Positions 1,825-30,415 of a stretch of 40,911 nt of DNA are shown piece by piece (the first letter of the stretch is position 1; every line of letters starts with the position of its first letter). Source of the stretch: Armatimonadota bacterium (lineage in GTDB: Bacteria > Armatimonadota > Hebobacteria > CAIYQO01); the NCBI GenBank assembly GCA_038248345.1, contig JBBRXO010000011.1, positions 1-40,911 of the forward strand. The letters are read 5' to 3'. The notes beneath the pieces were generated by a model that saw only the letters and a list, made by a program, of their open reading frames with translations, ran no database searches and was not told the DNA's origin. A program made the position numbers and the translations under genes.

Positions 1825-1846
1825 TTTGACCAACTATTGCGGCTGC

Positions 1847-1889
1847 TAACTAACAACGCCAGCGGCAATACCGCTGGCGTTGTTAGTTA
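1847..1889 (-). terminator. Strong hairpin ending the surface-protein cluster
   Basis: Perfect 19-bp stem TAACTAACAACGCCAGCGG-caata-CCGCTGGCGTTGTTAGTTA, 20 nt after the stop of the 4122-aa gene; the 3' arm is U-rich. Confidence 0.75.
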
Positions 1890-1909
1890 CCCACGATGGT
1901 AAGGTATCC

Positions 1910-4900
1910 CTAGAAGCTTACAAGGATGATATTACTGTCCGCAGATTCCAAAGCTCCTGCCACTGCGCGTACTGTCAGGTTATAGGTGGTTCCTGCTGTG
2001 TAAGTGCCGGTCACTGGCAACGTTACGCCAGCCGCAACGGTACCGATTTTTGTGCCGTTATTATAGACATTATATCCCGTTACTGCCGGGTTACCTACCA
2101 GCGCAACCCAATTGAATGTAATAACGGTTGCGGATACTGTCGAACCAATCTGCGTCACAGCACCTGGCTTCGTAGTAGTCTTAATATCGTCACTATTGAC
2201 GAGGGACTCACCGCCTGCAGAAACTGCTTTAATATTGAACGTATACGCAGTACCTGCTGCCAATCCGGTTACTTTATAGTCCTGAATAGCTGATCCTCCT
2301 GGAACAGATATCGGTGCTGGCCCACCGTAGATTCTATATCCGGTCACACTAGTTTCGGTTACTGGAGACCGCTTCCAATGTAACGTCACGTCGGTAGTAT
2401 TGTTAGTATCGGCAGCAGTCGTTGCCAGCGCCACCTTACTGGGAAATGTGAGACAGGGTTTAGAGTTGCTATCCAGTGACTCCTGTTGCGGTGTGAGTGT
2501 AGTATCCACCACCCGTACCGTCAAATTATGCATGACACCTGGCGACAGGCCCGTCACATCAATTTGCAGTTGACCCAAAACAATAGGAACTTCTTTAACC
2601 ATGGTGCTCAGGTTATCGTAGACACGATACTTGGTTGCTGTGAGGTCCGTTGCTTCGGTAGTCAAGTGAATACTAGCGGTGGTGTCCGTGATAGTGTCAA
2701 TGGATCCGATAGTTACCTTGGTCGGCGCGGTGTAAATATCTACTCCGCCGCTGAGCGCCGATGTTGCGCCATAGGTAACGTTAGTATTGATTGCCTGTAC
2801 TGCATAGTTATATTTAGTCGCCTGCAGCGGAACTGTATTATCCACAAAGGTAGTAGCTGGTGCATTCGAGGATCCTATTTTTACACCTTCACGATAGATA
2901 TCGTAGCGATTGGCGCCGGCCACTACATCCCAAGTCAGTGGAACACGTACATCCGAAAGTGGCTTGTTGGTATCGTCGTAACGCAGATTCAACGGCGCAA
3001 TAATCATCGAGAAGTTGCCCGAAGAACCTAACGACTCGCCCGCATCAATCATTGAGTTACCATTACGGTCAACGAAAGCAGTAACCTGTACAGATGCATA
3101 ATTGGTCAGGTCTGGCGTGAAGCTGATGGACACATTACCTCTCTGATTTCCTATTGTCTTCGTTAGATCGGAGCCGAGATATAGCTTGGCCGCATCATAT
3201 GTACCTGCCTTCACGACAACGTAGAAATCGACCTTGGCATTGTCAATTAACCTTGCGCCAGTATCATCATATACTATTCCGGTAATAGGATAGGTACCCG
3301 CCACGGGGACGTTAGTACTAGTACTTGGTGTGATCACCGCCGTATGACCACGAACAACCCTGACCGGAATAACATTCGTAGTTCTGGTTGTCGAACCAGC
3401 AAGGTCCTTAATCTCAATGGCTAGATTATATGTTCCTTGAATATATCCATAATATACAAACGGTGAATTTGTGCTCCAGCCGTAGGAGTTCCCATCTCTT
3501 TCCCACATGCGAGTAGCGCCACTCCAGATATATGGATCACCAGTTTCAGGAACACCATCTACCAGTAATCTACCTTCATACCCTGCAGGCAATGCATGAT
3601 GAAGGATGTCCTCTAAATTAACCGTAAGAATAGTGTTAGTCACGGCGTCCACACCACTCGGTTCAGGTGCTCTTAATATCGAGTACGCTGATGCATTTGC
3701 AGTGAAGGGGAACTTCGTCGCGTCCGTGATATCCTGACCAGTGTATTTGATTGTCTCTATTGGTAGCGCCAGATACTGGCCCGTTACACGTAAGTTATCA
3801 AATGTCAGATAAGCCAGACCGACGGTGGGATTAAGCTTATCCGACCGCATATAGAACTGTGCTATTCCGTTATTGTTGAATGCCAGGTAGGGTGGTGAAG
3901 GGAAAGGCCCCGATACACCCGCGGAAAATTCATACCCTTGTAGCAGTTGTATCTTGCCAATGCTGGTCTTTACTCTAAAGGCAACTCCCTGCAGTACTAA
4001 TTTGCCTTTATCATCCCTGCCCGTAATTGTAATCAGCGCACTGTCCGTTCCATCTGATAGGAGTGTTTTGGGGGTACCATAATCTAATATCATCTGCGAC
4101 GGTGATATTGGTGTTCCGTCAGGTTTATTAAAGGACAGGTAAGTGCGATTGCGCACTAAAGCAGTGCCCGTTGCGGTGAACCCAGTTAACTGGCTGGTAT
4201 GGTCAGTAGTGACCGCCCAAGCATGAATTGTATATAACCCTGAATAGTTCGAGGCAAATACAGCAACTGCCTGGCCATTTGCATCAGTTTCAACATACTC
4301 TCTACGTACCAAACCATCGCCAATCGTATCGTCTGGATTGGTGAACGGAGAAATATGGCTACTGCTATCCTTGAAGTGCATCGGGAACCCAATCAGCACT
4401 CGTTGGCCGATTTCATCATACACCGTAGCGGTGACATTAACGTTCTCGTCTGAATTCATAGTGGTGATGCCACCAGTAGGATCTTCAAAAACATTTGACG
4501 AACTAGGGTTAACCGGAGTGAGAACTGCGTTGGACGGCGGGCCTACCAATGCCACAGGAGTAGCCTGTGTCTGCAGCGGTACCGGCAAGGTAACTCCAAG
4601 GCTCTCAGCCGCAAAGACCGGCAGACCCAGTTCATTGATGACTGGGGTATACGGGACAGCCGAGTTTGTCGTGCGGCCATGGAATCTGACTATCATCTGG
4701 CCGCTATTGTTCAAGGTTCCGGTGATGACATTACCGATTTTGGTCTGATTCGATGAAACAATCTCGATTTCACCCGGGCCACTACCGATACTGAATGTTA
4801 CCACAGCTCCACTTGCCGCTTTAGCGCCAGCATCCAGGCCGTCCAGGCCGGTGATCGTCAAGTCAGTGTATGTGCGTACACTTTGCGATATCTGATCCGC

Positions 4901-7900
4901 AGGACCCTGTGAGTAATAGATGCGTTCTGCGCCGAGTAGGGCTTGGGCTGTCACTGTCACTCTGGCCACAACCGGAATGGTCGAAGCGGCAAGGGTTTTA
5001 CCGGTGACGGGAGCGCTTGCCGCTGAACTCACCCCCATTAAACTTTTTGCTGCCACGGTGAAGTCAAAGCTGGTGCTCGATGCCAGACCGGTTACTTTAT
5101 AGGTTTGGATATCGGTAGCCGCCCCGACATGCGGCACGGTCATCGGGGTATTTCCATTGGTTAATGTATAGTTAGCCGCTCCGAGCACGCCAGTCCAGGT
5201 GAGTTGGATGGTCGTTGCGGTTATTGCAGCGGCAGTAACAGCCAGATTCTTCGGAGTAGATGGCCGTGTCTGCCCACTCTTCACTAGGCACCAGCCAGAG
5301 ACGGCGGCACCGACGTATGAACGGACAGTATAGAAATAATCGGTACCGCCGGTTAATCCGATATTTGTATAGGGAAGGTCGCCCGGAGCCAGCAGTATGG
5401 AGGCGCCATCCGGAGTGGTGAATGAACCATCAGGATTAGTGTCAACAACCAGACTACGAACCAGGTCATATGATGTTGCTCCGGGAACGGCGGTAATGTT
5501 TACAATCAGCGATTTATCATCAATGCCCGTAGTGATGGTTAGCCCGGTAGGAGTCGGCGGTTTTGTGGTCGTCCCCAGTACGTTAGATGGTGCGGAAATA
5601 ACTCCATTAGCGGATGCAGTAACTCGGTATAGATACGCGGTACTCGGTGATACCGGCGAATCAATAGTAGTCTGCGTAGGCCCGGCGATAGCCGATACTA
5701 TCTGCGGCAACTTCGTCCATGCAGCGCCATCTGTACTTCTTTCTACAGTATAGAATTCGCCAACCCCCGTCCAGCTAAGGGTAACAGTGACATCCGTAGG
5801 TACGACGCTAGTCAATACCGGGGCGGTAGGCAAGGTTGCACCCGTTACCAGCGGAGACCACGCGCTCTTCACGCCGGCTTTGGTGCCGCGTATATGGTAA
5901 TAGTAGAGGGTGGCGGCGGTGAGGCCGGTATCGAAATACGGGAATTGCGATCCGAGGAGGTTTGTCATCGTGCCCACTGGCGAGGCGAAGGTGCCGTTGG
6001 GATTTGTTGCCAACGATGTTGAGCGCTCAACTTCGTACAATGTTACTGTCGCGTCTGGCGTTACCCCAATTCTGAGGGTAGTGGCATTCGTTGGAGTAAC
6101 TGTGAGCCCAGCCGGAGCGATAGGTAAGGTCATACCTGTCACCGGCGTACTGGCGGTGGAGACGGCACCGCTGATGCTATTGGCCGCCACGGTGAAGTCG
6201 TAGCTGGTAGCTGCTGCCAGGCCAGTAAAGGTAAATACCTGGGTGGCTCCCGGCGCTCCCACATGCGGCACGGTGACTAGAGTAGCTAAACCAGTGCGGG
6301 TAACAGTATAGTAGTCTGCCCCGGTGACGCCCGTCCAACTAAGGTCGAGTGTGGTATCGGTGCTGGCAATGGTATTAACCGTGACACCCGTCGGAGTGGT
6401 GAGATCGGTGGTTGCGCTGACCAGCGGAGACCACGCGCTCTTCACGCCGGCTTTAGTGCCGCGTATATGGTAATAGTAGAGGGTGGCGGCGGTGAGGCCG
6501 GTATCGGAATACGGGAATTGCGATCCGATCAGGCTCAACAGCGTACCATCAATGCTAGTGAAGGTTCCATCTGCTTTGGTGGCGGGTGATTTGCTCCGCT
6601 CAACTTCGTAGAGGGTGAGCGTCGCGTCTACCGTAACCCCAAGCTTAATTGTCGAGGCGTTAATCGGTGTTACCGTTAACCCTGCCGGAGCGGCGGGCAT
6701 CGTCTTACCAGTAACTGGCAAGCTGGCGGCGGAAACGGCACCATCATTGCTGTTGGCTACTACGGTGAAGTCGTAGCTGGTAGCAGCGGTAAGACCGGTA
6801 AAGCTGAAGACCTGCGTGGCACCCGGTGCGCCAACGTGCGGTACGGTAACCGTGATGGCCGGGTTGGAGCGGGTAACAGTATAGTAGTCAGCTCCGGTGA
6901 CGCCCGTCCAATTGAGGTCGAGGTTTGTATCGGTACTGGCAATGGTCTTAACCGTGACACCCGTCGGAGTGGTGAGACCGGTGATGCCGCTAACCAGCGG
7001 AGACCACGCGCTCTTCACGCCGGCTTTGGTGCCGCGTATATGGTAATAGTAGAGGGTGGCGGCGGTGAGGCCGGTATCGGAATACGGGAACTGCGATCCG
7101 ATGAGGTTCAGCTTCGTACCCACTGGTGTAGTGAAGGAGCCGTTAGAAATAGTATCTATTGATAGTGAACGCTCAACTTCATAGAGCGTTACAGTAGCAT
7201 CTACCGTGACCCCTAGTTTGATCGACGAAGCATTGAGCGACGTAACCGTAAGTCCTGCCGGAGCGGCGGGCAGGGTCTTCGCTGCCAAGACATTAGAAGG
7301 TGCCGATAGTACCGAGTTCGCCGAAGCGATGATACGATAGAAGGTGGTGGTATCTGGCACTGACGCTACGGTCGCGGTCTGGTTTGGCCCTGCTCCTGCA
7401 GGTGTCGTGGCAATCGGTGTCCAGGTAGTGCCATTCGGACTGGATTCAACATTGTAGAAATCGCCCAGGCCAGTCCAGGTTAATGTGACGGATATATCGG
7501 AAGGGGTAGCGCTTGCCAATACCGGTGCCGCTGGCAATGTTATGCCAGTAGCTATGGTAGACCATGCCGTTTTAACACCAGCTTTGCTGCCGCGGACATG
7601 ATAGTAGTAGATGGTCGCAGCAGAGAGGCCAGTATTAGTATACGGGAACTGACCGCCCGTCAAATTCAATGTCAGGCCATCTTGGCTGGCGAAGGTACCA
7701 TCAGCATTGGTTGTCAGTGACTTGCTGCGTTCGATTTCATAGAGTGAAACCGTTGGGTCAATTGTCATCCCGAGTTTGAGAGTCACTGCATCGACGGAGG
7801 TGACCGTTAGCCCGGTGAGTGCCCCTGGTAGCGTTATGCCGGTGACGGGTAGGCTGGCCGCTGATGTTAATCCACCGGAGTTGTTCGCCACAATCGTGAA

Positions 7901-10900
7901 GTCATAGCTGCTGGCTGCTGTTAGACCAGTGAAAGTGAAGCTCTGAAGAGCATTCGCTACTCCGACGTGGGGAACGATGACCGGTGTAGCCAGGCCGGTG
8001 CGGGTAACTGTATAGTAGTCCGCCCCGGTGACGCCTGTCCAGGTTATGTTGAGTGTCGTATCGGTGCTGGCGCCAGTATTTACGGCGATGCCAGTCGGAG
8101 TGGCGAGGTTAGTAGTGCCGCTGACTAGCGGAGACCACGCGCTCTTCACGCCGGCCTTGGAGCCGCGTATATGATAGTAGTACAGGGTTACGGCAGTGAG
8201 ACCAGTATCAGAATACGGGAATTGCGTGCCGATCAGGTTCAACATCGCGCCGGTTCGCGTGGTGAAGGAACCATCCGCTTTCGTCGCGAACGAGAGGGAG
8301 CGCTCAACTTCATAGAGCGTAACTAATGGATCAACCGTAACAGCAAGCTTGAGTGTCGAAGCGTTGATGGCTGTGACATTCATGCCTACCGGAGCGGCGG
8401 GCAGGGTATTACCGGTTGCCGGCAAGCTGGCGGCGGAGTTGGAACCAGCTGTGCTGTTGGCAATGACGGTGAAGTCATAATTGGTAGCAGCAGTCAAACC
8501 GGTGAAGGTATAAACCTGCGTTGCGCCGGCTGCACCGACATGCGGTACGGTAACCGGATTGCCTAAGCCGGTGCGTGATACTGTGTAGTAATCAGCTCCG
8601 GTGACGCCCGTCCAATTGAGTTCGAGTGTTGTATCGGTGCTGGCAATAACTCTTACCGTAACACCTATGGGGGTGACGAGTCCGGTGGTGCTACTGACAG
8701 AGTTAGACCACGCTGATTTTACCCCCGCTTTAGTTGAGCGGATATGATAGTAATAGACGGTGGCGGCAGTGAGGCCCGTGTCATTATAGGGGAACTGCGA
8801 TCCGCTCAAGGCGATCATTGAACCATCTGGATCGGAGTATATTCCATTTGCTGCAGTGGCCAACGATTTGCTACGCTCAACTTCATAGAGCGTAACTGTC
8901 GGGTCTACCGTAATGCCAAGTCTCAGTGTGACAGCACTGACCGGTATCACTGTTAAGCCTGCCGGAGCGACTGGTAGGGTGGTAACCCCTAGCGAGTTAG
9001 ACGGAGCAGAGACGACGCCACCCGCCGTGGCTACTATGCGATAGAAGGTGGTGGTGCTCGCTACTGCTGCAACGATCGCCGACTGGGCTGGCCCGGCAAC
9101 CGCCGGAACAGTAGACAACAACGTCCAGGTGGTGCCAGTCGGGCTTGATTCGACATTGTAGCTATCGCCATTGCCCGTCCAGCTTAAGGCTACAGTGACA
9201 TCCGTGGGAACAGCACTGAGCAGCACCGGCGCCGATGGTTGAGTGGTACCAGATTTCGCCACGGACCAGGAGGAGGTTATCCCACCGGTGACGCTACGAA
9301 TATGATAGTAATAGGTATGCGCTGCAGTAAGACCAGTATCGCTGTATGGGAATTCCGTTCCAACAGCGGACCATGCACGATCAACGGTGGTGAAGTTAAA
9401 AGTGTTACTGCGTTCGATCTCATAGAAGCCAACCAGCGGATCTACGGTGACATTAAGCTGGAGTGCTTTGTCACTGGTAGCCGTAACGGTTAACCCGGAT
9501 GGAGCAGCAGGCAATGTTTTCGCCATTACCGGCCATGAGCCTTTTGAATTGTTGCCCGTTGCATTGGACGATGCCACCACCATGATGAAGTAAGTGGAGC
9601 TTCCCAGTAAGCCGGTGAGCTGACCTTTTTGCGTGGCAGTCGGCAATCCTACATGGGTGATAATGGTATTTATCGTCCAGGTGGAGGTGGATAAGCCAGT
9701 CGGGCTGGTGTATATCTGATAACCATCAGCGCCATTCACGCCAGTCCAGCTGATATTAACTGTTGAATCTGTGATCGGCGTCGAGACATCGATCATCACA
9801 TTAATCGGGGTCTGCAGTTCTGTCATTGCGCTCACGGGATTGCTATATGACGGAGCGCTGGAGCCGATGGAATCGCCTACTTTGTAGAAGTAGGTGGTGC
9901 CGGGCAGCAACGCGGTGTCACTGTAGCTGAGCGTCGTTGAATTCAAAGACGGTGCGATGACAGTGTAATTGATCTCCGCCGCGGTCTTGCGGGAAATACT
10001 GTAGCTCGAAGCTCCGGCGACGGCATTCCAGACCAGGTCAATCTGTGAACTGGAGATGACGTTGAGTGCCAATCCGGTAGGTGCCGGCGGCAGTGCGATG
10101 ACGTAGACCGGGGCGGACGGCACGGAAGGTACACCACCGCTGTTTGCGATGATGCGGAAATATTGTTTGGATGACGGCGCCACCGATACAATCGAGGTAT
10201 TCAGCACGGCGATGTCGTTGTTACCCGGAGCCGTTTGGACAAGACTCCAGAGCAGATTGTCGGGGCTGGAGTAGATTCCGAAGTTATCCGCGGTACCATC
10301 CCATGTCAATTTGACGGAGCCATTGGTGATGTCATTTATACCTGGAACATGCAGCAACGGCTTCTTCGGGAAAGTGGACGCCTGCAGTGCCGCGGTGAAG
10401 TCCGAGTTAAAGTCTACCTGTCCGGCAGGAGCCAGGGCACGCAGTCGATAGAAGTAGGTGGTTCCCGATTGCGGAACATGGGTGTCATTATAGGTCGTTA
10501 TGTTCTGCGTCGTAGTGTAGATGGTGGTCCATGCCAACGGCGTCAACGGGTTATTGTTCTCCTGAGCGCGTTGGATATCATAACCATAATTGCCTACAGA
10601 ATTCTGCCAGGTAAGGTCGATCTCTTTGTCAGACATTGAAACCAGGGCCAGACCGGTCGGCGCCGCCAGTACTGCTTTCAGCAGAATATCGCTGCCGATC
10701 TTCTTATTAGCAGCATCCGTGAAGCTTAATACGGTGGAACCGTTGGTAATCGGGCTGTTATAGGTGAAGGTCACCTGGCCATCAGATGTGGTATTAGTAG
10801 CGAAGGACTGTACATTGCCGCCGCCCGTGCCTATAGTGCCGTTGGTCACTTTGACAACTACGGACTTGCTGGCCAACGGTAATCCATCTCCGCCATAGAG

Positions 10901-13900
10901 TTGCCAGATGAACGGCGTAGCCTGCCCGACGATGACGTGGACATTATGCGCGTCGATCTTCGTACCGCCACTAACCAGCAGCGGATTCTCAATTGTAACG
11001 AAGGTTACGCTGGTGCTGGCGGTGATACCACCATCCAACAGTGCGGTGACGGTGGCCGTAGTATTGGTGGTGCCCGGCGTCAGTGTGAAGTTGCCTTGTC
11101 CCTGCGCATTGGTAAATACCGACGGGGTGATGGAACCACGATTAGTCGAAAGGTGTACTACTATTCCGGAGACGGGCACACCGTTGCTATCGGTTACCGT
11201 AACGGTACCAGTGGTTACCGCGCTGATTTGCGCTGGCAAATTGATGCTGACAGCTGACGGGATACCGAGGATATCGATATTGGCAATCGCTGAGTTCAAC
11301 GTCCCGGAGGTGGCGGTGAAGGTGGCCGTACCGGTGTTGGGACCAGCTTTGATATTCAAGCGCAATTCGCCTGCATTACTCGTCACGCCTGTGAATGGAG
11401 TAGTGAAGAGTTTATAGGTGCTGGTAACCGGATCCAGGTAGCTACATGTCTGATCAGTACATGCGATGGTTACCGGCTGATTGGGGATAGCGATGCCGGA
11501 GACGTCGACGATACGAGCCGTGAGCGCGGTGAGACCCAATGCACGTACGCTATTATTATCAGCATACAGCTGCACTGCTACCGGGGCAAGCGGATTAATC
11601 GTGAAGGTTATGGGCTTTGTTAATGCCGGAAGCGCGCCTATCACGGTGGCCGTCAAGGTGACCGTCTTCTGCGTTGTGACGTCGATCGGCATCGGAGCAG
11701 TGTAGACGAAGGATGCGTTGCCGCTGGCATTGGTGGTGGCGGTTGCTGGCAATGCCGGTGATACCGAGCCGAGTCCCACACCCGGTGTGGACATAGATAC
11801 CTGATAATTGGCGAGGCCCAGACCGTCGGAACCACTTACCGTGACAGTGATAGGCACGTTAGTAGCGCCTGCCGTCAAGGTCAGATTGGGCGAGGTGACT
11901 GCTAGCTGAGAAACAGCTGGCATCGGAGTGGCCGAATTGTAGGGATATGGTCCGAAAGATGACTGTGCTGGCGTCGCGCCGTCAATAACCTCTACCGTGT
12001 AGAAGTAGTTAGTGCGGTTTACGACGGTGGTGTCAGTGATGGTTTTGGTGCCGAACGGAATCAAGTTAGTATTGATCTTTTTGCCCGCGACCGCGAGCAT
12101 CTCCGCTCGGGTATAACCCAGCGGATTTGCCGGTGCGGCATTCAGCCGATAGACGTTATAGCCGTTTCCCACCACCATAGGGATAGGTGAGCCATCTGCA
12201 TTGGTAGTCGGTGCGGTCCAGCCGACGACTACCTGACCCGGACTCGGAGTGGTTGTAACGGCAGAGGCATTAGCCGGCGGTACGTCAACCCAGATATCGT
12301 TAGAGGGGATGGAATCGGCAACTAGCGATGTGCCCGTGCGGATCGCTTCCACGGTATAGATGTATTTTGTACCATCGTGAATATCGGAGTCAACAAAACG
12401 ACTGGTGGTAACCGCGATATTATCCTGCACCAAGGTGCTTCCCGCCGGTTGCCGAACGCCAGCAGCGGCGCGATTGGGAACTAATATCCCGCCGGTCCTG
12501 GTGCCAAAGTCGTAATATCCGTGCGAGGGATGGAGGCCGGTCTGCGCCATAGCCGCATCGCCCATGGCCTTAGTATTGGTCGTATTGCGATATATTCTAT
12601 ATCCGGTGACCAACGGGTCTGGTGATGGTGTCCAGGTGACATTGATATTGACTTTTGTCCAGTTCGGCAATGGGGCCAAAACAGCCTGCACATTGCTTGC
12701 GGGTGTCAATGAGGTTGGGTTGATAGTGATCGTCAAAATCTCGGGGTTCAGGGTGGCGCTCTTGTAGTTACCCACGCCGAGCGGGATCACTTGAATATCC
12801 GTGGTGCCCGACAGCGCGATCCTTGCAGTGGTAGCGGATGATGCGACGGGAAGTAGCGGGGCGATCTCTTTCCAAACAGAGCCGGTACGTGCCAGTATTT
12901 GGATTCGGTTGATCAGCCCGGCTTGTGAACCTGCTGGGTATGTCCAGGCGATGTCGACGATGCCGCCGACTTCGTTGGTTTTTTGCAAACCAGTAGCGGC
13001 CGGGGGCATATACGGCCCGACCAGCGGATTCTTGGCAACTGTGGGATTCCATGTGGTACCATTGAAGATACTGAACATCGTATAAGATCGATCGGTGTTG
13101 ATCATCTTAACTTGATAATTGAACAACCCGTTAGCGGCGGGACGATCGATGATAGTTACCACACCGGTAGCGGAATTGTAATTTACCTGCGCTTTGGTTA
13201 ATGGACCAGCATCTGGCACACCAACTGCACGCACGCGGGTGCCTTGATTAGCGCGGTATACTTCAAATGTCTGTGCGGCGGCCCATTGTGCCGGCGTCAA
13301 GGTAAACAATAACCGGATAGTGCCGTCGGGATATGGGTATGCGTAACCTTCGCCCGTACCGGGTAGCGGTGGTGGAGTATCCGATTTGCCACCTCCGCGG
13401 GTGGCGGAGTAGATAATGGTAGCAAGTGCCAATCCCCCGAGGATCGGCCATATCTTGTTCATCGAGGAGCCACCACGTTTGGGGGCTGGCGCACTTGTAA
13501 CAATGACGCCATCGCCACTGCCTATCTCATCGCCGTTCGGTTGTGCTTTGCCGGTAAGTAGCAGGGCAAGTCGCTCGCCGATGTTGCGCACGGCTTCGGC
13601 ATTATGCATCTCTCTGGTGCCGCCGCCGTCGGGGCGTACCACGCTCTTGCCGATAACATTTATCGGCGCGGCGGGGAGTGCATTATAATTTGAATCGAAT
13701 TTGACCTGGGTCGCGGAAAGATGTATTTTGGCTTGCGCGCCATCGGCATCGGAGAATTCGTAGGTGTCGACGGTACCATAGATGAAAGAGTCCGCTTTGA
13801 GCAGTTGCGCCAGATATGCGATAGCGGCTTGCCGATTCGTCACTTCCGAGTTCGGATCAGCGGCGACATCATAGGAGGCCATCAGCAGCGCACGGTCTTC

Positions 13901-14278: not shown

Positions 14279-14362
14279 CGATTACTCCTTAAAGTAACTC
14301 TCGCGCTTTCATGCGCAATCCCTCTAAAGGAAGGGTTTTGTTATAATTTTATTTTTCCAGTA

Positions 14363-17300
14363 TTAGTTTGTCCGCATCGGTATACTATGCAGACGTTGCA
14401 GATCGGCGGTCTCAGCGAGAACGTCGATCAAATACTCACCAGCACGGATACTATTGCCATGCATATCTTTGCCATCCCAATTGATGGTAATTGCTTTGCT
14501 ATCTGCGGCATCCGCGCTCAACTGACGGACTACCTTACCTGCGATTGTCTTAATTGTTACCGTTACGGTTGCCGGAATTGACACCGCACAAGTGATGGTA
14601 GCGCCCGCACGTTTATTATTAACGGTAGCGGTGTTCTGCGTGAACTGCAAGCGCGGTATTGTGCCACCGGCGGTGATAACGAACTGCCGTATGCCGCCGT
14701 TGCCGCTGTCAAATGTATAACTGGAAGCGGTACGCATATAGGTGCGCTTGCCGGTGCTGACATCGGTAATCATCAGGCTGGCGCCAGCAGGGAACTGCGT
14801 CATATCGGGCCAACTCACCTGTACTGGTACGTTGGTCTGACTGCAATACACATTGTACGTCCAACTATTGATGGGACTCGGCGTGCGCATATCAGTACCC
14901 AGGCGATTATCGGCGCGCGTACTAGTGGAGCCGACGAAGTAACTGGAGAGCCCGGTGGGGCTGACCGGTGGCTTCATCGCATTCAGGATTTCACGGGTGG
15001 TGACATTTCGGCTGGTTACGCCGAAGGTTGAACTATCCTGGGCACCCGGGATAATAGCCTTCATATTTATCTTCCACTCATTAGCGCTGCCGCGAATTCG
15101 CGTGGACGCTGGCATACTACGGTAGGCCAGCGGTACAAATTGATTAGGTACGAATACCAGCGTCGCTGCCTGATTAGCGTAGAGCCAATATCCCTGGTAG
15201 GGCTGCAACGGGACGCGGATTCCCTGCTCGGCTGTTATGGTACCAGCGGCAGGATTTTCCCATGGCCAAAGATTTGCGGCGTTCTGGTAACCGGGGTTGG
15301 TAGGATTAGTAGAATCCCACGACCAGATATTACCGGAAATAACGCCGTTTGCGATTGCCTCTTCAACTGTATAGGATACGTCGGCACCGTCGACCACCAC
15401 TTTGCATTTGCCCCATTCAATTCCGTAGAGGAAGGGGTTGCCGATCAAGTTCCATCCCTGACGGATCGATATCGGGTAGGTCAACGTCTGGTCAAGCTTG
15501 GTGGCATCTCGCAAGGTGACCGATGTTGTGGAATCAAATTTTTGCCAGTAGCCTTCCCCGGCATTTAAGGTAACATCTCCATTAACAGCGAGGCGGTACG
15601 GGTTACCTGATGTAATAGTGGGGTCAAATTGCGCTAAGTTGACATTCGGCCCCAGCCCCAATGCCACTCGCGGATCCGCGTTAGCGAAGGTATAGGGGAA
15701 GCTGGACAAGTAAATGCCACGGCTATAATTGGAGGTTTCGATGGCCGGCACATTCACAAAGAATGTGCTGGTGATTGATCCACCTGGCGTAAAGTTAGCA
15801 GTAACCGTGACGGGGATCAAACCGCTTGCATCGCCAGTCGGTACCAGCTTCCAACTCACCATCTCATTCGCGTTGAGTTGTAATAAGCGATCTTGCATCT
15901 CGGGTACTTGCACGCTATAACTGAGGTTCTCGTTGTCATCCACTCGTAAGCCCTTTGATGGAGTAATAGTAGCATTAACGCGAACTAAGCCAGCTCCATT
16001 CTGCGAGTTGGTAAGATAAACACGGAGATTTGCCTTGGCCGGGCTATAGACGCCATTAACGGCCTTGAGCGATTCGTCACCGGCGATGGCAACGGCATAA
16101 TGATCTTTATATGCAACACGCGCCCAATTGAGGCTGAAGTCGCCATCAATTACCCATTGTGCGCCCGGTGCCAGGGTGGTGAAATTACCATTGCCGTTAT
16201 TGTAATAGTTGCCCACGGCGAAGCTCGGAGTGCCGGTGCTATCCAGCAGTGCGGTACCGGACTCGACGATGGGGAAGGTTCCCGGATTCAGCGCATTTAC
16301 CCAATTATAACGCTGTAGCGAATCCAACGGCGCAAACACCAAGCGGGTGGGAACGGTGCGGGGGGCATCGTTAGTGCCCACCGTCAAACGTTGCACGGTT
16401 GACATCAGTGGTTTGTTATCGATCTCCGCGGGGTTAACATTATCCGGAGTATAACGGATATCCCACTCATCAGGGACATCGGTTCCGCTGAAGTCGCGAA
16501 CATCGTTGAAAGCTCTCTTTGTGGGGATGATATAGGTAGCATTGGCCACATTTTTCCCGAGGAACTTAACGTTATTCACGGTGCGGAAGCCCACAAACCG
16601 GGAGGAGGGCGATTTATTGATAATGGTGTAGCTATAGTGCACCACATCGCGGATGAGGGACAGATGGATTTTCACATCAAAGCTATTGGTTGCATCGCCA
16701 GTATTCCACGTCATATCGGCCGTCTGTTTAGTTACATCCGGAGGCAATTGCGAGGAGGTGACTCCGCCCAGGCCTACCTGGAATTCACCTGTCGACCCCG
16801 GCACATAAAGATAGGCGAGGAATTTATTAATAATGGTGGCATGATCATCCTGTGAGTATTTTGGATCGCCGCCGGTAGTGCCGAAACACCAGGAACCGGT
16901 GGAGTCGACGGCAGTGCCGGTGGTGTCGGTACCAGAATGCCCGATACCAAGTCGTGCCACTGAGTTAGTCAGCATCCAGTAGGCATCCGGGGCTTCATCC
17001 AAGCCAGGGATATTGGCGATCCCACCGGTAGAGGTGACTTTAACCGTAGCAGTGGATGTGCCTGCCGGCGATGTTGCGGTGATGGTGAAGGTACCGCTGA
17101 CATTACCTGCTGTGAAGATACCACCACCATTAATAGAACCACCGCCGCTGACTGTCCAGGTGACATTGGCAGAAGGTGTGGCAGTGAATGCCTGCGACAT
17201 CCCATAAGCCACCGTTGCGGTGGCGGGAGATATCATCAATCCGCCCGTGGGGGTGATGATCACCACTGCCTGGGCGGTGCCATTACCATTCGTAAGTGTA

Positions 17301-19636: not shown

Positions 19637-19659
19637 TTATCCTCCGAGTGCACGTGCTG

Positions 19660-22600
19660 TCAATTGGACAGGAACGCTGCACCTTTTGCTGTCTGCCCAT
19701 TTTCGGTCGATGCCGATAAATAACAAATGTACTGGCCATGTGCAACACGATGACCACGATTGTCTAGTCCGTCCCATTGAATGGTGAAATTCCCACCCGT
19801 TACTGCCTGCGCTGGCAGTCGGCGAATTAACGCACCGTTCATGGTTTTAATGTCTACGGTTATGTTGGATGTGTCGGAAATTGTACCACTTAATAATGCG
19901 CCGGTACCCATCTTCACCGCACTGGTAGCGGAGAAGAACAAAGCGCCAGGATTGCCGGGCACGGCGGTTATTTTGATCGTTCGTGCGGTTTCCGTCGCCC
20001 CTAATATCACCTGGTAGGAGGTGGTGCTGCGCATGTAGCGCTCTACCGTACCATCAGTCAATTTCAACAGGTACCCGGCGGGCACTGCAGTCAGGTCTTG
20101 CCAGTCAATGTCTATCTTGCTACCCGGTGTTCCATTAACTTGCAGCGTCCAGTTATAGGTGCTGCCGGGGGCCGGGGCTAGTAGATCGCGGTAAAGCGAA
20201 ATCCCACGTGTTTTCGCCGCCAGGCCAATGCCGGCAGGAGACGTGGGAGGCGCTAGCAGATCAAGTCTAGCATCTACGCCGGATGTGGCGCCGGGGGCAA
20301 CGCCCAATACGACACCTCCGCCACCCAACCCGGTGTTAGCAGTAGCATTAATGCCGAAGCTCCACTCGGTCGCGGAACCTCGCGTCCGTCTGCTTTCCGG
20401 TGCCAATTCTCGCGTGACCGGTTGCGGCTGGTAGGTAATATAGGCGCGGACAAATTGAGTACCGGCGCGCATATTTATCCAGTATCCCTGCCATGGCTGG
20501 AGATTACCATTCGGGTAGATCATCGCCGTATAGGCTTGTTTGTCGATATCCCAGCTATAGAGCACCGGGTCGACATACTTGAGCGTGACGGCATCTCCCA
20601 TTGAATAAGTCTTACCATTCACCATTACCTGCAAGCTGGAATAGGGGATGGCGAAACTATATGGGTTGCCGATCATATTGAAGCCCGTTACGACCGGCAG
20701 GTTATACCTGGTAAGGCTGGAGGTAGAATCGCCGGAAAGTCTTACCGGAACGCTGGCTGGCTGATTTGCCTGCGCGGAGTAAAGCTTGAACCAAAAGGCA
20801 CGTCCGGCTGGCATCACCTGTGTGGCGGTGTTTACATCGGTGGCGGCCCAGGCTGTGCTGTTAAAATCTGCGTTGGCCGGGACAAACTGATTATAGTATT
20901 CGTAGGCAAGGTTGAGGGGATTCCACCAGGCCAGCTTGATATTAGACGGCGAAATGGTGGGGAATACGGCATCAGCATTGCCCACGCCGATAGCTGGCAG
21001 TGAGAGCAGCATGAACTTATCAGCGTTAGTGACGGAGAGGACCTTCTCTTCCACGCGGAATTTGAGCACGGCATTAACCGCGGCACCGGTGATCTGATTT
21101 GTTGCATCGACAATCAGCTGGTGAGACATCCCCGGCACCAGCTCGCCAGGATATATCGTCAGGCTGCCATCGGTGGCATTGTAGATAACTGATGTACTCG
21201 CAACCGAAACACCATCAATGGTCACCTGCAATGAGGATGGGGTAAGCCCGACTGCGCTGGCGCGTAATACCGGTGAGCGGACATAAATGGTGGAATTCGC
21301 CGCCGGGTCGCGGAAATTAATCAACGAGGTTGCCGGATTGTAAGACGACAGGTCAGCAATTACGTCCAGCCCGGCATAGTGGATATTGCCGATGTCTATA
21401 TTGGATGGGCCACTAGAATAAGTTGCCGTTGAGGGAGTGGTATTAGCTCCCAGATGGGTAAAGTTAGTTGTGCCCGGCATGACAATCTTCTCTACTGGAT
21501 AGTATTGATACTTACTACCAGATGCATTGTAGGTCTTAATTGTCAATCCACCCGGAGTGAGGGGATAGATGCGCGGGTGAGTGGCGCTCAATTGCAAATC
21601 GTGAGCGCTGAAAGTCCCGATATTATCGTCCACATGATAGACAATCATACCCGATTCATCGATATATTGATCGTAGCCAATTTTTGACCGATTCTCCAAC
21701 AGGAAGTACTCTTTAGAGTTTTCATCCCCATTCGGGAACATACGATAAATCGCCGCTCCAGTTGCCGTCGCCTGTGGTGAGAGTTTCACTCCGACGAGGC
21801 GCTGGTCGGTTACATTAATGACATTCGCCCAGCCAGCGAGAATTTTATTCCATGCATCCGGATGCGAAGGCTTGCTGGAATATTGAATTTCACCGTCTGT
21901 GTGAGGAATGAGCCACGGATTACCTTCGTCATCGCCAACCCTGGGGAGCATCCAGCCGTCTGCCATCAGCGAATATTTGCCGAGACTAACACCACCTGTG
22001 TAGGTAGTGTCGTAGACATTCTGCATGCCCAGTGCGCCACCTATTGACCAGGCCCAACTCCCCAGTACATCCCACCAGTGCGGAATAAAGACATTGGCGG
22101 AGGCGAACTGCCCGGGATCCTTCTCAAATTTCAGGAAGTCAACCTGCGGGGTTGTCCCATCAAAGACACCCGGATTGGCTGCTTTGATAAAGGAATCGCT
22201 GCTCATGGTCTCGGGAACTTGCACCCAGCCAGCGATATAGGAACCATCCTGCATCGGCACCGCTTGCGCGTAAGGTACCTGAATGAACTGGGTAGTGAGA
22301 TCGCTCGACGTTGCATTCAAGCTGATCTCTAACGCAGACCCAGCGTGGATGATCATTACTACATCGTAATAGCTGTATTGAACACCAGGGGTCAGCTTGG
22401 CAATATCTGTAATCATGCGCGCTGCGCGTGTCCCATCGCCTAGTATAATGCTCTGATCGGCTGCGTAATTCGCAATGGAATCCGGCAACGAAATTTTTGT
22501 GGCCAGATCCGGTGAATTCTGATCAAAGTAACCCACTAGTTTAATGCGTTGGGCGGATACTTCACTATAATACTGTGACAGCGCCGTCAAGCGATCCTTG

Positions 22601-22926: not shown

Positions 22927-23014
22927 CCCACATCCTCAATCGCAAACACCTGGCCGATTTCTCGGTCAGGGTTGGCGAAGGTATTACTAATAACTAACGA
23001 CATTCGCGATAAAA

Positions 23015-24985
23015 TCATTTGCTTCGTCGCAATAGAATATTATCGTTCCCTGCCTGCATGATGTATGAGCCGGATGACCCCTTGGGAATTGCCTGTCCAG
23101 CACTGAGCAAGCCCCCCGGGCTACGTATCTGCCGCGGTGTAGCGGAGAGCTGGTGCATATAGGGATCGCAATAAACGTATCCATTCCAATTGGGGTTGTT
23201 GATCGCCTTTGGTAAAGCGAAACCGTCCGCCCGTGACCCGTAGCGCCAGTACAAGTTGCCTGCGCTGGTACCGAAGAAACTGCTCAATTCGGCCTGCGTG
23301 ACAGTCGCTTGCACGTAGTTTGTAGAACGAATGCCGACAAGAGAAAGGATGGTGCTGTTATTGCTGAAGCTACTATCAGTGGATATTTGCAATTTATATG
23401 ATGTAGCCCCAGGAACAATATTGGTACGATAGACGCCATCCAGCGGAACCGAGCCATTGGAAGGTGACTGGAGCGTCGGCGGGGCCAACATGACGCAGCG
23501 TTGCGTGTAATCCGAGCTATTGCTCAGGACTAACTTATAGGTTGGCAGGCCTCCGGACGAAACCGGTATCGAGGTATCGATATTGTATGAGAGTGTGCGA
23601 ATGAAGTAACTGGCGGAATCACCTGGGTTCATCGGCACAAAGCGGGTAGTGACGGCAAAAGAAGAGTTCTGTATCGTCATCATGGGATCGCCGGCGCTGG
23701 TAATAGGATCCGTCAGATTGGTGCTGACCGGAATAACCGGGGCTGAACCAGTGACGGTATCTAACGATACGGTATAGGACGTTGAGCGCATCGGCTTGGT
23801 TGGATCTTCCGCTAATGGGCCACCACGATCTTCAAACCAGGAGATTCCCGGCTGCACCAGCGCAATAGGGGCGTTCGGGTTAGAATCGCGATAGAGCAGA
23901 TGAGCGATTACATTACTACTGGAAGTCGGGCAATTAATCCGTATTTCACCACTGGGCATCTTGGTCGCGTCAGCCACGGGGAAGGCGGTTACCTTGCCTG
24001 AATTCGCCGGGTTGTTCTGATTCAAACCCGAGCTAATCAGATAATAGAGACCTGCAGCACCCAGCACTGGAGGTAAATTCCTACTTAATAATTTCCCAAA
24101 GCCGGCGGCGCCACCACCCTTGCTTACTGGATGATCCAGCGAGAAGATGGGGATAGCTTTATCGCCAATCGCGATTCCATTGTTTCCGCCTTCTACCACA
24201 CGCGCGACAGAAGTGAAAGAATCCGCTGAGACAATCTCAATTGTTCCTGTTACCGTCTCGAAACGCAGGGTGGTAAGGCGCATACCTTCACGCATACCCG
24301 CAACCGAGCCGAGGTTGATAGTGACTGTGCCATTGGAGGGGCTGGCCAGGACATTGGCAACTTGGAAGCGCGTATTGATGATACTGTTGGAGATACTATA
24401 TGCTGTCAGGGACACCGCCTGGCTTACCATCTCGACATTACTGCCGTGATAGTCCTTCCGGGGCGCGCTCTTCTGCACAATACGTCCACCCGCTATCGGG
24501 TTTCGTAATATGCGGCTGATGAGTGAGTAACTCGTCGTCACCTCGGCATAGGTACCTTCGGCGCTCTCATTGATTGTTACTTTCTCAATGTTGCCATTGA
24601 CGCCGTAGTTAGCCTTGAGTTGCGCACATATCACCGATACCGCCGATATGGGAACTGGCGGGTTCAGCATCTGTGCCCCGACGTTCACCATCTCGGATTT
24701 CTTCACCACGTCGTACAGGCGCGTGGCGGTAAGCTCAAACATCAGCTTGTTTGAGAGTTCCTCACCGATCGCCCCAGTAGAGAATTTCGACGAGTTGCCG
24801 AAATCAACTACCACGAGGCGCGGCAGAGTATTCTCATCGCCAGCACCTAATTTCTCATAGGGAGAACCCCCTCCCTGCGCCTGCGCTGGTTGAGAAGTTA
24901 GCGGCATGAGAAATGATACCAGCAAAAATGCACCAATGATGCCGGCCATCGAACGCCCTAAGTGTCTACACATCCATTTATCCAT
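23015..24985 (-). CDS. CsgG-like/FlgT-like domain protein (~656 aa) with internal hydrophobic helix and beta-rich C-terminus
   Basis: Start reassigned to ATG 24985 (SD AAGGAG; MDKWMCRHLGRS...PAQA signal peptide). RLVVVDFGN...LMFELTATRLYDVVKKSEM is CsgG-like. VTINLGSVAGMREGMRL...GTIEIV...SVARVV...IAIGDKA is FlgT C-terminal-like. Hydrophobic segment LPPVLGAAGLYYLISSG. Confidence 0.8.
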   Translation of the reverse strand: MDKWMCRHLGRSMAGIIGAFLLVSFLMPLTSQPAQAQGGGSPYEKLGAGDENTLPRLVVVDFGNSSKFSTGAIGEELSNKLMFELTATRLYDVVKKSEMVNVGAQMLNPPVPISAVSVICAQLKANYGVNGNIEKVTINESAEGTYAEVTTSYSLISRILRNPIAGGRIVQKSAPRKDYHGSNVEMVSQAVSLTAYSISNSIINTRFQVANVLASPSNGTVTINLGSVAGMREGMRLTTLRFETVTGTIEIVSADSFTSVARVVEGGNNGIAIGDKAIPIFSLDHPVSKGGGAAGFGKLLSRNLPPVLGAAGLYYLISSGLNQNNPANSGKVTAFPVADATKMPSGEIRINCPTSSSNVIAHLLYRDSNPNAPIALVQPGISWFEDRGGPLAEDPTKPMRSTSYTVSLDTVTGSAPVIPVSTNLTDPITSAGDPMMTIQNSSFAVTTRFVPMNPGDSASYFIRTLSYNIDTSIPVSSGGLPTYKLVLSNSSDYTQRCVMLAPPTLQSPSNGSVPLDGVYRTNIVPGATSYKLQISTDSSFSNNSTILSLVGIRSTNYVQATVTQAELSSFFGTSAGNLYWRYGSRADGFALPKAINNPNWNGYVYCDPYMHQLSATPRQIRSPGGLLSAGQAIPKGSSGSYIMQAGNDNILLRRSK

Positions 24986-25099
24986 GGTAGCGATTGCTCC
25001 TTTTCTCTTCCCCTCGCGATACGACCACGGTGAGGACGTAGATCTGCAATTGTTCATAAAGAATTTCTTCCTATTCTCAACATACTGAAGGAACCTTAT

Positions 25100-25130
25100 A
25101 TCTGAATTCTACACAGAATTCAGATTTCCT
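25100..25130 (-). promoter_or_regulatory. Internal sigmaH-like promoter overlapping an 11-bp-arm palindrome
   Basis: Minus strand GAAGGAAAT-11 nt-GTAGAAT (AGGA 25130-27, GAAT 25109-06). Palindrome ATCTGAATTCT-acac-AGAATTCAGAT at 25100-25125. Confidence 0.5.
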
Positions 25131-25161
25131 TCTTGATTCCAGAAATATTCTACCTTTATGC

Positions 25162-28100
25162 TCATTTGAGCATAAAGGGGGTCGTCGTGCGAATCACACG
25201 CCCCATATTATCCGTCACTTTCACTTCACAGTTGTAAATACCACGTGGCATCAATCTGCCGTTATCATCCTTGCGATCCCAGATTACTGTGTTGACTCCA
25301 GCATTTGCTGGTACCCCGTTTAGCAGGACTTTACGGAATACCCCCTGGATTAAGGTGACGGTGACGTCAGCCGGTGCCGAGAGACTGTATTTCACTACCA
25401 CACCATTACGTACTAATGACGCCTGAACATTGGTGATAGAAATCCCCGCCGTTCGCGCGCCGACGGTTACCTCGAAGCTACGCACTTCGCCTACCTGCGC
25501 GGCGCGGAAGGAGTAGCCAGCGACGGTATTCATATACTGTTGCTGTCCGGTAACTGTGTCGCGCAGAATTGCCTGCATCCCGCCCGGGAGTTGAACTTGC
25601 AATTCTGGCCAATCAATAGTTATGTCACTGGCGGTGGTATTGGCGGTCACCGTGAACACCCACTTCTTCTCGCCGCCGCTGGCGCTGCGTATATCCGTGG
25701 CATACTGGCCGTTATTGATTCCCCAGTCCTGGTGCGGGAAGGCCAGCACGGCCGGAGCGGAGTCCGGGGCGGGCGGTAGCCGGAAGTCGGTAGTATTATC
25801 GAAACCATCGTGGCCAGCAGAGGATACGCCGAAGTAATGGCAGTTATCCTTCATTCCATTGGCATTTAGGTTCAGTTGGACACGCCACTCACCTGACTGC
25901 GCCACGGAGCGCCTCGTCACGGGATTGATGGTACGCACAGCCGAGCGATTAGAGATGTTCAATACGCACTGATTAGCGGCGAACACCCAGTAACCGGCAT
26001 ATGGCTGCATGATGGTGACTATCTGATAGCTGGAACCATTCCAGCCGTAGACCGCCCCACCGATTAACGCGGGTATAGTGGTCTGGGCGTTCTGGAAGGT
26101 AACTGTCCCGGCTGGTGAAGTTACGCTGCAATCGAAGAGATCAACCGCGAAGGGGAACGGATCCCCTACCAGGTTCCAGCCCGCTTGCAGCGGCAACGTG
26201 AACGGGGCGGTGGTATCCACCGGGGTGCCTTCAGTTTGTACTGTCAACGGGGCGTTCAGTTTCATCCAGTAGGCTTTTGCCGGCTGGAGTAAAAGCGTGC
26301 CCGGCCCGGTATACATCTGATATGTACTGCCGATGTTGTCGTAATTACCGGCAATTTTATTGTACAAGGTGGTGGTATCTGTACCGAGCAACTCGGGGAA
26401 ATCCTGCGTATAGGTACCCGGGAATGAGTAGAGCATGGTGCCAGGACGTAGGGTCAATAACGGATCCAGGCGATATACTTGCCCGGTAATTATCTGCCCC
26501 GGGGCGATAGCCAGTGACTGTATAATTGTCTTGCGCCCGGTGTAACTCAGGCGTATCTGATACGAGCCTGGCTGCAGGGTAAAGTCAATATTCGATAAAG
26601 TACCGCTGCCGCTGAAGGCGCTGGCGGTAGTTTTACTGGTGATCACATTGCCGGAGGCCAGAATTTCCACCGTTACCCCACCGAGTGCACTAGCGGAACT
26701 ACCATCGTATACCTTCAGGAATACTTGCCCGGCACCGGTACCACCATTGACGTTGGCCATGGTGATAGTGATGTTGGCTCCAGTGGCGGGGAGATAACTG
26801 ACTACCTGGGTAGCGCCAGCGAATCCGCTGGCGGTGGTAGTGACGGTATAATCGCCCACCGCCAGCCCGGCAAAGGTAAAGCTGCCGTTCAGGTCACTGG
26901 TGGTAGAGCTGATGAAGGCGCCATTCAATGTCAGCGCGACACCCGCGCCCACGATGCGGATGCCATCGCTGCCGACCACGGTGCCGGAGAGCTGATTGGC
27001 GACTACTACATTACTGCTGAACTGGAGATCAACACGTTTAACTTCGCCCGCGGATACCACCGGGTCAGGCGTGGCAGTTGCGGCAGGGCCGCCCAGTGAA
27101 TCCACCGCGCTAACCGCATATTGGCCGCTATCGAGGTTGGTCAGCTCGTAATGCCCAAGGGCATCGGTAATAACCGGCTTGGGGGTAGAACCGCCACCCA
27201 CCGGCACGGCCGTCACCATGGCATTGGCCACCGGAGCTGTGCCGCGCTTTACGTAGCCCCAGATGGTGCTGGTATTGATGTCGCGATAGATGAAGAAGCT
27301 GGTATCCACCGAGCTGGTAACTTTGCTCCCCACTACGGGGATGTTACTCTTCTCCAGGGTGCCGAAATAGCCCGTGGCAGTGACTTTGGCGCGGTAATGT
27401 GCGCCTGGACGCAGGCCATACACGCGGTAGGTGCCCGATGCATCAGTGCGCGCAGCCGCCACTACACGGACGATATCCGTGGCGGAGGTGGCACCGGGGG
27501 TTACTTGGCTGATTACTACCAGCGCATCTTCCACCGGCTTCAGACTATTCTCCTGAACTACCGTTCCCTTGATGGAGCCATCCATCAGCCAATCCAACGT
27601 GTCCCCTGCCGCTTGCGCTCGTACATGGCTAGAGATGTCTTCATAACCGAAAGACCAGAAGGCGGTGCGCCCGCCGCTACTAGTTAACTCGCGTGTGATG
27701 GCAACGATATCCGTCGCGGTGTTATCATTAGATGCGGCGATGGCCGCTACTGCCCCGCCTGTCGGGCTGATGACGTCCCACGTTCCCACCGGGTTCGTCA
27801 GATTACTGGTAACGTACTGGCTGGGATTCGAGTTGCGCGGCAACTTCGCCGTGCCGATGACCGGCCAGCGTTGCGCGGCGAGCGAATCGCCATACCAGCT
27901 ACTGGAAGGGAAGGCAGATTTTTGCAGCGCAAATGGCTGATAATTCAACGATATCGATGAATTACCTTTCAGATTCGTCATCGCCAGCGTCTGTGACACC
28001 AGCCGGGCACCGATGGTACTGGTGAGGAAACTGTTGGTTTTGGTACCTTCAGCGGTGAGGCTCTGTGCCAGATCTTTGCCGATAACAAAGAGACGACCGC

Positions 28101-30297: not shown

Positions 30298-30386
30298 GCG
30301 CGCAACTCCTTTTTTACTCTCGGCCGGAGTAGATTCGGGGATTATTACCCGGTAAAATCGTTATTACCTACACTAGATAACGATTG

Positions 30387-30415
30387 ATTATAACAACAGG
30401 TTATCAGATTGACAA
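30387..30415 (-). promoter_or_regulatory. sigma70 promoter of the surface-protein cluster
   Basis: Minus strand TTGTCA-17 nt-TATAAT with extended TG. It is followed by the inverted repeat AATCGTTAT...ATAACGATT and further short hairpins in the 5' UTR. Confidence 0.75.

Follow-up and report, generated by a model that had tools for sequence, protein, structure and literature searches.

The window analyzed here, a 40,911-nt stretch of an Armatimonadota genome (assembly GCA_038248345.1, contig JBBRXO010000011.1), contains five co-oriented open reading frames, C1, A2, C2, C3, and A1. These, like all the features located below, lie on the minus strand; their intergenic gaps of 23 to 176 nt and their positions confirm the closely spaced cluster of the preliminary description, and the cluster sits among housekeeping genes (rpsA, coaE). 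The strong promoter and terminal hairpin of that description survive in part. A candidate sigma-70-like promoter found by motif match (30387..30415), TTGTCA-17-TATAAT with a score of 11/12 and an extended −10 TG, is present, but since one such site was found versus 0.9 expected in shuffled sequences, it is notable only for its quality. The hairpin 3′ of A1 (1847..1890) has a genuine stem of about 20 bp but no U-tract, and it did not pass the terminator scan; it is a possible terminator or mRNA stabilizer. We rejected it as a REP repeat because no full-length copy occurs elsewhere in the genome. Inspection by eye and hydropathy indicate a signal peptide in each of the five proteins. A search of them revealed neither a lipobox nor an RTX motif, as previously reported, but LPxTG-like words, which had been reported absent, occur in A1 and C1. 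None precedes a membrane segment, and the LPVTG near the end of A1 was rejected as a sortase signal.

The division of these proteins into two architectural classes is real. The three tailed proteins carry different payloads, as shown by open reading frame analysis and domain searches. C1 (25162..30297, 1711 aa) consists of a signal peptide, a PD40 propeller-like region, a middle region, carboxypeptidase-regulatory-like repeats, and a four-domain tail (25165..26445) composed of repeat 1, repeat 2, domain 3, and the CTD. C2 (19660..22926, 1088 aa) combines an M6-like protease domain with the same type of tail (19663..21027), modeled with a pLDDT of 92.6, whose last 96 residues (19663–19950) form a FlgD_ig/T9SS-CTD-like domain. 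While the M6-like domain is present as first described, the HExxH zinc motif is missing in C2; it is kept in two orthologues of the family (G058 and G083). C3 (14363..19636, 1757 aa) has Ig-like (Big_2/PKD) repeats and a conserved middle region before its four-domain tail (14366–15721). The tails, about 430 aa long, are homologous, with 24 to 28% identity over about 395 to 410 aa and blastp E values of 5e-19 to 4e-29 among the five proteins, which bears out the common C-terminal module proposed earlier.

The suggested kinship of this tail with type IX secretion signals also holds, for its last domain: the CTD is related to the T9SS signal at the family level. The tail profile matched over most or all of its length a Fibrobacterota protein, one protein named as T9SS type A cargo, and two PF18962 proteins; the whole four-domain tail thus occurs in T9SS-annotated proteins. 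TIGR04183, the T9SS type A model, scored above its threshold in 32 of 151 genomes, with several of these matches inside tails, and had no match in the present genome, the C1–C3 tails included. When the whole tail was used in a fold search, the matches listed were taken up by its last domain, whose fold match is unspecific: many FN3 domains do as well as PorU (Z 10.2), and Vpr does better (12.3). A Lys or Arg lies within the last two residues of 27 of 29 tails, the exceptions being C2 and C3; type A CTDs are described in one paper (PMC10994853) as having a conserved C-terminal Lys. The family therefore shares with T9SS cargo (SprA/Sov system; 6h3i) a signal peptide, unrelated payloads, and a C-terminal β-sandwich with a terminal basic residue. 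FlgD_ig was rejected as a stand-alone marker because only 4 of its 27 matches in this genome are C-terminal.

As for class 1, A2 (23015..25057) is the cluster's core gene, present mostly in single copy, as seen in the family survey, and encodes 680 aa, or 656 from the second Met, which is preceded by an AAAGGAG ribosome site. In the structural model (pLDDT 87), a domain with the CsgG/PelC/TolB-N fold and an FlgT_C-like domain (24137..24835) are followed by a basic linker, an internal hydrophobic helix (24026..24067), and two FN3-like β-sandwich domains (23147..24010). A1 (1910..14278, 4122 aa) has a CsgG-fold-like domain homologous to the N terminus of A2 (13544..14173), a hydrophobic helix followed by a Gly/Pro linker (13409..13453), and a passenger of about 3,800 aa. 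This passenger, described before as β-sandwich domains, is present and is better described as mainly FN3 and Big_1 repeats; many relatives have a passenger-less A1 of about 250 aa. The two N termini do not match in a pairwise phmmer search but are joined by profile (hhalign 98.4%, E 5e-15, 149 columns). A homologue search with the single A2 sequence returned only A2 itself and one close relative. The best 15-residue window of the helix reaches a hydropathy of at least 1.6 in 148 of 150 A2 rows, a count for which there was no null control, and the basic residues stand before the helix.

FlgT ranks first among the fold matches of A2, with PelC, CsgG, and TolB-N within about 1.5 Z. Consequently, the earlier label "CsgG-like" is correct at the level of the fold (for A2 by model, for A1 by profile only), but FlgT is the closer two-domain match. 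FlgT, of the flagellar H/T ring (3w1e, 8z5n), shares with A2 the succession of a CsgG-type and an FlgT_C-like domain, the middle and C-terminal domains of FlgT (Foldseek E 3e-13; Z 13.8, with an RMSD of 12.1 over 222 residues), whereas A2 adds the hydrophobic helix and the two FN3-like domains. Among the genes listed for 21 loci and read by eye, no flagellar genes were seen around A2, nor were curli or Pel genes seen in the loci read. PelC/PelBC and CsgG (5t0z, 9h80, 6lqh) have the same α/β fold (Z 12.7–13.1, RMSD 2.8–3.4), CsgG lying at the end of this range (Z 12.7, RMSD 3.4). However, these are lipoproteins, while A1 and A2 have an internal helix instead of a lipobox. The Pfam CsgG model matches 4 of 17 A2 members and 1 of 14 A1 members; C168, another protein matching it, was rejected as part of the system since it is not linked.

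A further component, the outer-membrane barrel B, usually belongs to the operon; in this genome it is encoded elsewhere, outside the window. B comprises an Ig part (an N-terminal Big_1 domain in 10 of 10) and an LptD-like jellyroll and barrel, homologous to LptD of the LptD–LptE translocon (E 1e-6 to 7omm) and to the genome's own LptD (hhalign 99.8%). In contrast to LptD, B has the N-terminal Big_1 and is without the conserved motifs of the canonical copy, with which it coexists: a separate LptD carries the TTC-PHY and DLHC motifs, which we take to mark the canonical copy. B is thus not the genome's canonical, lpt-linked LptD, and we rejected it as the only LptD because this separate copy was found. 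With one query, a separate copy was detected in 131 of 151 genomes, and 17 of the 20 misses have a shorter separate match; an lptF/G-like neighbor was recognized by eye in 6 of 11 loci.

Far from being lineage-specific as first proposed, the cluster occurs throughout the phylum Armatimonadota. A2 is found in 149, B in 147, and tails in 141 of 151 genomes, and comparison of loci confirmed that class 1 and the tailed class co-occur and stay syntenic. In 86 of the 89 genomes with A2 and B on one contig, the two are on the same strand within 30 kb. Three genomes without a detected B, all from one family, have an A2 cut before its FN3 domains.

A second outer-membrane barrel encoded outside the window is S1, of about 900 aa (894 aa here). 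Its N-terminal profile matches Flavobacterium johnsoniae SprA (6h3i) with an E value of 7.6e-18 in two colinear stretches, SprA 158–269 and 696–786, and can be aligned, over 307 columns, to a protein of 1828 aa for which the SprA model gives an E value of 2e-36. This homology covers only the N-terminal third of S1, which is far shorter than SprA (2403 aa). SprA was not found at E 1 when the whole-length S1 profile was searched against the PDB; the S1 of this genome alone did not match the SprA model, P0219 alone had no match in the PDB, and the S1 N terminus had none among plasmids. On this profile evidence, S1 is homologous to the translocon and not to carriers of the PorP/PorV type. Here S1 is the first gene of a second operon, which also encodes a fourth tail protein, and the contigs of the two overlap by 69 identical bases. 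Tail genes were present in the stretch read at 9 of 15 S1 loci (7 on the same strand), at 5 of the 11 S1 loci not picked for tail adjacency, and at none of the five loci read for a second SprA-motif family. Two of the tail genes adjoining S1 are themselves without a CTD. A predicted complex of the C2 CTD and S1 (894 aa, aligned in 16 rows), for which controls were not folded, scored 0.03 versus a mark of 0.32 and is taken to weigh neither for nor against the pairing.

CTD presence tracks S1 and not class 1. A strong S1 is present in 91 of 151 genomes and a full-tail proxy in 93, with 90 genomes having both, 57 neither, and 4 being discordant, at cut-offs that were both set afterwards, at gaps in the scores. 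All 30 tail matches inspected in 15 S1-negative genomes end at or before position 331 of the 432-position profile, before the CTD. Since kin are not independent, these counts are best read against a quick tree, which omits G010 and requires about six changes, only two of them forced by strong branches. The CTD is dispensable in many lineages, which distinguishes this family from T9SS cargo. Tailed proteins of 2,000 to 3,700 aa are nevertheless encoded beside A2 in lineages that have neither CTD nor S1, and S1 is therefore not the sole route, if these reach the surface.

Together, the relatedness of the CTD to the T9SS signal and its near-constant S1 partner make a stripped-down type IX-like export route likely, outside the group thought to own T9SS. 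We propose, with a probability of roughly 0.5, that S1 exports or receives CTD-tagged cargo and that A2, A1, and B form an outer-membrane scaffold, the five genes being the cargo-and-anchor part of a phylum-wide envelope system in which large proteins would be exported or displayed via S1. All five proteins would cross the inner membrane by Sec. S1 would then recognize the type-IX-like domain ending the shared tail, bind the folded C1–C3, and pass them through the outer membrane with neither a GldLM motor nor PorV, while tail repeats 1 and 2, which persist after CTD loss, may be a docking or assembly module. The FlgT/PelC-like domains of A2 and A1 would lie in the periplasm, probably as rings, with the helix crossing the outer membrane, the downstream domains outside, and B assisting; alternatively, the helix may be located in the inner membrane. 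PelC is a periplasmic ring beside a barrel, and the arrangement proposed for A2/A1 and B would be analogous. The A1 passenger would serve here as a lineage-specific adhesin or spacer. A more specific version, in which a minimal motor-less and PorV-less T9SS-related system uses the roughly 900-aa SprA homologue to export folded CTD-tagged proteins, docked via repeats 1 and 2 on FlgT/PelC-like rings and the LptD paralogue, is more tentative.

The giant tailed proteins of S1-negative lineages would be accounted for if, instead, B, with A2, were the export or insertion channel and repeats 1 and 2 the signal, S1 serving optionally as an outer-membrane receptor to anchor proteins with a CTD once they have been exported. 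Consistent with this, B and A2 are nearly universal and operonic, repeats 1 and 2 are what nearly all inspected short-tail proteins retain of the tail, and a tail is absent from, or only weakly matched in, the genomes in which B was not found (G046, G125, and G107). However, eight genomes (families f4 and f5) are without a tail but retain both A2 and B, and S1 is kin to the translocon rather than to carriers. Moreover, LptD-sized barrels with a jellyroll of the lipid-binding type are not known to move folded proteins. We consider this explanation unlikely.

Less probable again is that the cluster combines an envelope scaffold with lipid transport, B moving a second glycolipid, A1 and A2 forming LptE-/FlgT-like accessory rings, and the tailed proteins being structural, periplasmic or associated with the outer membrane, and not exported. 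B indeed aligns with canonical LptD over 482 columns and keeps its LptA/LptC-like jellyroll, the A2 domain matches LptE (Z 9–10), LptE itself went undetected in all 5 genomes searched, although the controls were detected, a canonical-type LptD directly follows A2–A1 in G107, and the cluster sits among housekeeping genes. But the separate motif-bearing LptD exists, and neither the CTD's tracking of a SprA homologue nor the FN3 passenger on A1 would be accounted for.

The preliminary description had A1 and A2 oligomerizing as CsgG-like pores that export or hold the tailed proteins. The fold match to the ring formers FlgT, PelC, and CsgG, the conserved helix, and the tail genes adjoining A1/A2 are in its favor. 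However, the same fold occurs in the non-pore proteins TolB, LpoB, and LptE, only 136 of 206 CsgG residues align, A1 and A2 have no lipobox, and A2 persists without tails while the CTD follows S1, so that a class 1 ring is improbable as the channel for tailed cargo. Finally, it is most improbable that a complete but strongly diverged T9SS, with its motor, rings, and PorV missed by the profiles, handles the tails as ordinary substrates, since, despite the SprA and CTD homologues and a C25 peptidase in this genome (an open frame of 628 aa with no C-terminal tail-profile match), GldM (0 of 151 genomes), GldN (0 of 5), and full-length SprA over cut-off (0 of 151) were not found in searches lacking a positive control, and PorV, with its control detected, gave one weak match in 151 genomes, in a genome without S1 or tails.

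The check on the T9SS core thus revealed no complete system, GldM, GldN, and PorV being essentially not found, and no T9SS counterpart was found for A2, A1, and B, with which the cargo genes are clustered. According to a 2025 review (PMC12398890), T9SS is exclusive to the FCB superphylum, outside which Armatimonadota lie, and needs at least 20 proteins. Our literature search, with thin coverage of subscription journals, found no description of the present system; new here, from sequence comparison, are the relatedness of the CTD to the type IX signal, the homology of the S1 N terminus to SprA, and the co-occurrence of S1 with complete tails. The near-universal pairing of A2 with B suggests a core envelope machine, not yet described, in this poorly studied phylum, and an LptD paralogue that may act in something other than LPS transport. 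In a distant diderm phylum, the joint retention and loss of the CTD and a SprA homologue of about 40% length would demonstrate that the translocon–signal pair is viable without motor or carrier, and would make it possible to test how type IX secretion arose and what it minimally requires. If the minimal system exists, no simpler pair of SprA and CTD would be known, and it may retain the ancestral form of type IX secretion.

The window, one entire contig of a 2.98-Mb genome (96% complete), carries five ORFs on the minus strand between coaE and hisS. Their order is C1 (1711 aa), A2 (680 aa, or 656 aa from a better start), C2 (1088 aa), C3 (1757 aa) and A1 (4122 aa), with a near-consensus promoter-like site upstream and a 20-bp hairpin, without a U-tract, downstream. 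The genome encodes BamA, LpxC and LptF/G, and the organism is therefore a diderm. Elsewhere in the window, NAD synthetase is present as separate glutaminase and synthetase genes (32757-33635 and 34301-35212), alongside genes for a Dps-like ferritin (35369-35866) and a PHP-domain protein (36044-36823), purF (37083-38627) and a rhamnosidase gene truncated where the contig stops (39931-40911).

As for C1-C3, about 400 homologous residues are common to their C-terminal tails. The tail, modeled with a pLDDT of 92.6, has four domains: a pair of repeats related to each other (hhalign 94%), domain 3 and, at the end, a beta-sandwich (CTD). Sequence searches match the CTD to FlgD (E 4e-12), with weak matches also to PorU and PG93; in structure its PorU match is tied with generic FN3 domains. 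TIGR04183, the model of the type A sorting signal of type IX secretion (T9SS), scores over cut-off in 32 of 151 relatives and has no match over cut-off in this genome. Four proteins that carry a T9SS-cargo or Fibrobacterota annotation match the tail profile from end to end or over the greater part of it, and tail-like Atlas clusters with Por_Secre_tail come from Rhodothermota and Bacteroidota. The tail is thus shared with cargo of the FCB superphylum and is no Armatimonadota invention. This genome (G000) also has ~23 internal or N-terminal FlgD_ig matches, mostly in proteins of 1100-1700 aa (contigs C1, C3, C7, C23, C29, C30, C31 and others); these are an expanded family not related to the tail. 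A peptidase C25 protein (G000:C25:348-2231; 628-aa open frame) has no C-terminal tail-profile match. In one relative (G105), a tail gene is split (L049:4372-7045), through either a sequencing error or a real frameshift.

In profile searches covering a single set of 151 genomes of the phylum, A2 was present in 149, the tail in 141 and B, a barrel protein with Big_1 and LptD-like regions, in 147. B is found downstream in relatives, co-oriented with A2 and within 30 kb in 86 of the 89 genomes with both on one contig; the members of 53 of the 142 A2-B pairs are on different contigs, and B of this genome sits alone on a separate contig, away from the window. A second LptD was found elsewhere by one query in 131/151 genomes, with a shorter separate match in 17 of the 20 misses and, by eye, an lptF/G-like neighbor in 6 of 11 loci. 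B is thus an LptD paralogue. That B is the channel and S1, the SprA homologue described below, an optional anchor is possible but rather unlikely. A role of these proteins in lipid transport with a periplasmic scaffold is more doubtful still. In the eight genomes of families f4 and f5, A2 and B are present and the tail was not found. Three genomes (G046, G125 and G107) show no B match, and their A2 ends before its FN3 domains. In G107 a canonical-type LptD, instead of B, lies downstream of a shortened A2 and of A1 (L135:6025-12612). Two genomes of one genus, G046 and G125 (L130-L134), have LpxC and LptF/G, and both LptD-like profiles match weakly only. B of G124 is in two ORFs (L036:16552-18631), by sequencing error or real frameshift.

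The N-terminal homology of A1 and A2 is detectable by profile only. Mature A2, modeled from a 150-row alignment (pLDDT 87.4, pTM 0.57), is predicted to comprise an alpha/beta domain, a small beta domain, a low-confidence linker, a helix (271-284) and two beta-sandwiches. The top Foldseek match of the model is FlgT (E 3e-13), and a wide structure search returned FlgT (Z 13.8), PelC (13.1), CsgG (12.7), TolB-N (12.4) and LptE (9-10), with the C-terminal part matching FN3. The helix, preceded by basic residues, is hydrophobic in 148/150 A2 rows (A2 of this genome, at a hydropathy of 1.47, being one of the two exceptions) and, among the 12 A1 rows covering this stretch, in 10. Relatives of A1 that lack a passenger are ~210-340 aa long, others reach 2150-4120 aa, and some have no helix. 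A ring of A1 and A2 (class 1) as the pore seems improbable.

The SprA model exceeded its cut-off in 0/151 genomes and matched weakly in 82, mostly ORFs of 860-1200 aa. Twenty fetched loci fell into two families, S1 (15) and S2 (5), most with a C-terminal Phe. Searched against the PDB, an S1 N-terminal profile retrieved SprA (E 7.6e-18), which a profile of the whole length failed to retrieve; the N-terminal profile also aligned colinearly with a SprA-like protein of 1828 aa. All 15 S1 members match the SprA model, a circular result because they were picked by that match. S1 of this genome (940 aa, E 4e-172) heads a second operon, spread over L172:3116-5938, 1505-3100 and 3-1262 (minus strand) and L072:2-1729 and 2903-3769. 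Next come a gene for a 531-aa lipoprotein-like product with carboxypeptidase-regulatory-like and FN3-like regions, one for a fourth tail protein, which is split across two contigs with a 69-base overlap, a gpsA-like gene and one for a 289-aa barrel-like protein without Pfam or NCBIfam match. In several relatives, a similar lipoprotein-like gene separates S1 from the tail gene. S1 has a tail gene nearby in 9/15 loci, or in 5/11 once four loci chosen for known nearby tail matches are set aside, and S2 in 0/5. S2 (L157, L159, L162, L165, L170), with no full orthologue in this genome, comprises 1060-1210-aa barrel-like proteins with a SprA-type motif and internal repeats. S1 is often preceded (L156, L158, L160, L161, L166, L169, L171) by two genes, which by eye we take to encode a DUF5693-type membrane protein and a CsaB-like polysaccharide pyruvyl transferase; this pairing may point to a connection with a cell-wall polymer.

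Across the 151 genomes, S1 (E <=1e-50) and the full tail (best E <=1e-75, a proxy checked at the main locus only), with both cut-offs set post hoc at score gaps, are both present in 90 and both absent in 57; three genomes have the tail only and one S1 only, all four confirmed on re-search. In 15 S1-negative genomes, 30/30 tail matches stop before the CTD, as does the tail of G002. A quick tree of A2 from 64 genomes requires six changes of the CTD label, two of these forced by strong branches, and S1 tracks the label save in three single genomes. For a SprA homologue whose loss accompanies every loss of the CTD, the simplest role would be to handle that domain. A complete T9SS, present but hidden, is very improbable: PorV matched in 1/151 genomes, and searches run without positive controls gave GldM in 0/151 and GldN in 0/5.

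In Flavobacterium johnsoniae, according to PMC10994853, the CTD sits within the SprA pore, with ~1000 square angstroms against SprA and ~850 against PorV. We give about even odds (0.5) to a reading in which S1 would export CTD cargo, or handle it at the outer membrane, and A2, A1 and B would serve as a scaffold, with binding, oligomers and localization all being inferred. The main fact this does not account for is that giant tailed proteins occur in lineages without CTD and S1. A review confines T9SS to FCB (PMC12398890). On the reading given here, the Armatimonadota system would function as a reduced form of type IX secretion. It is no member of T9SS, as full-length SprA was found over cut-off in 0/151 genomes and PorV in 1/151.
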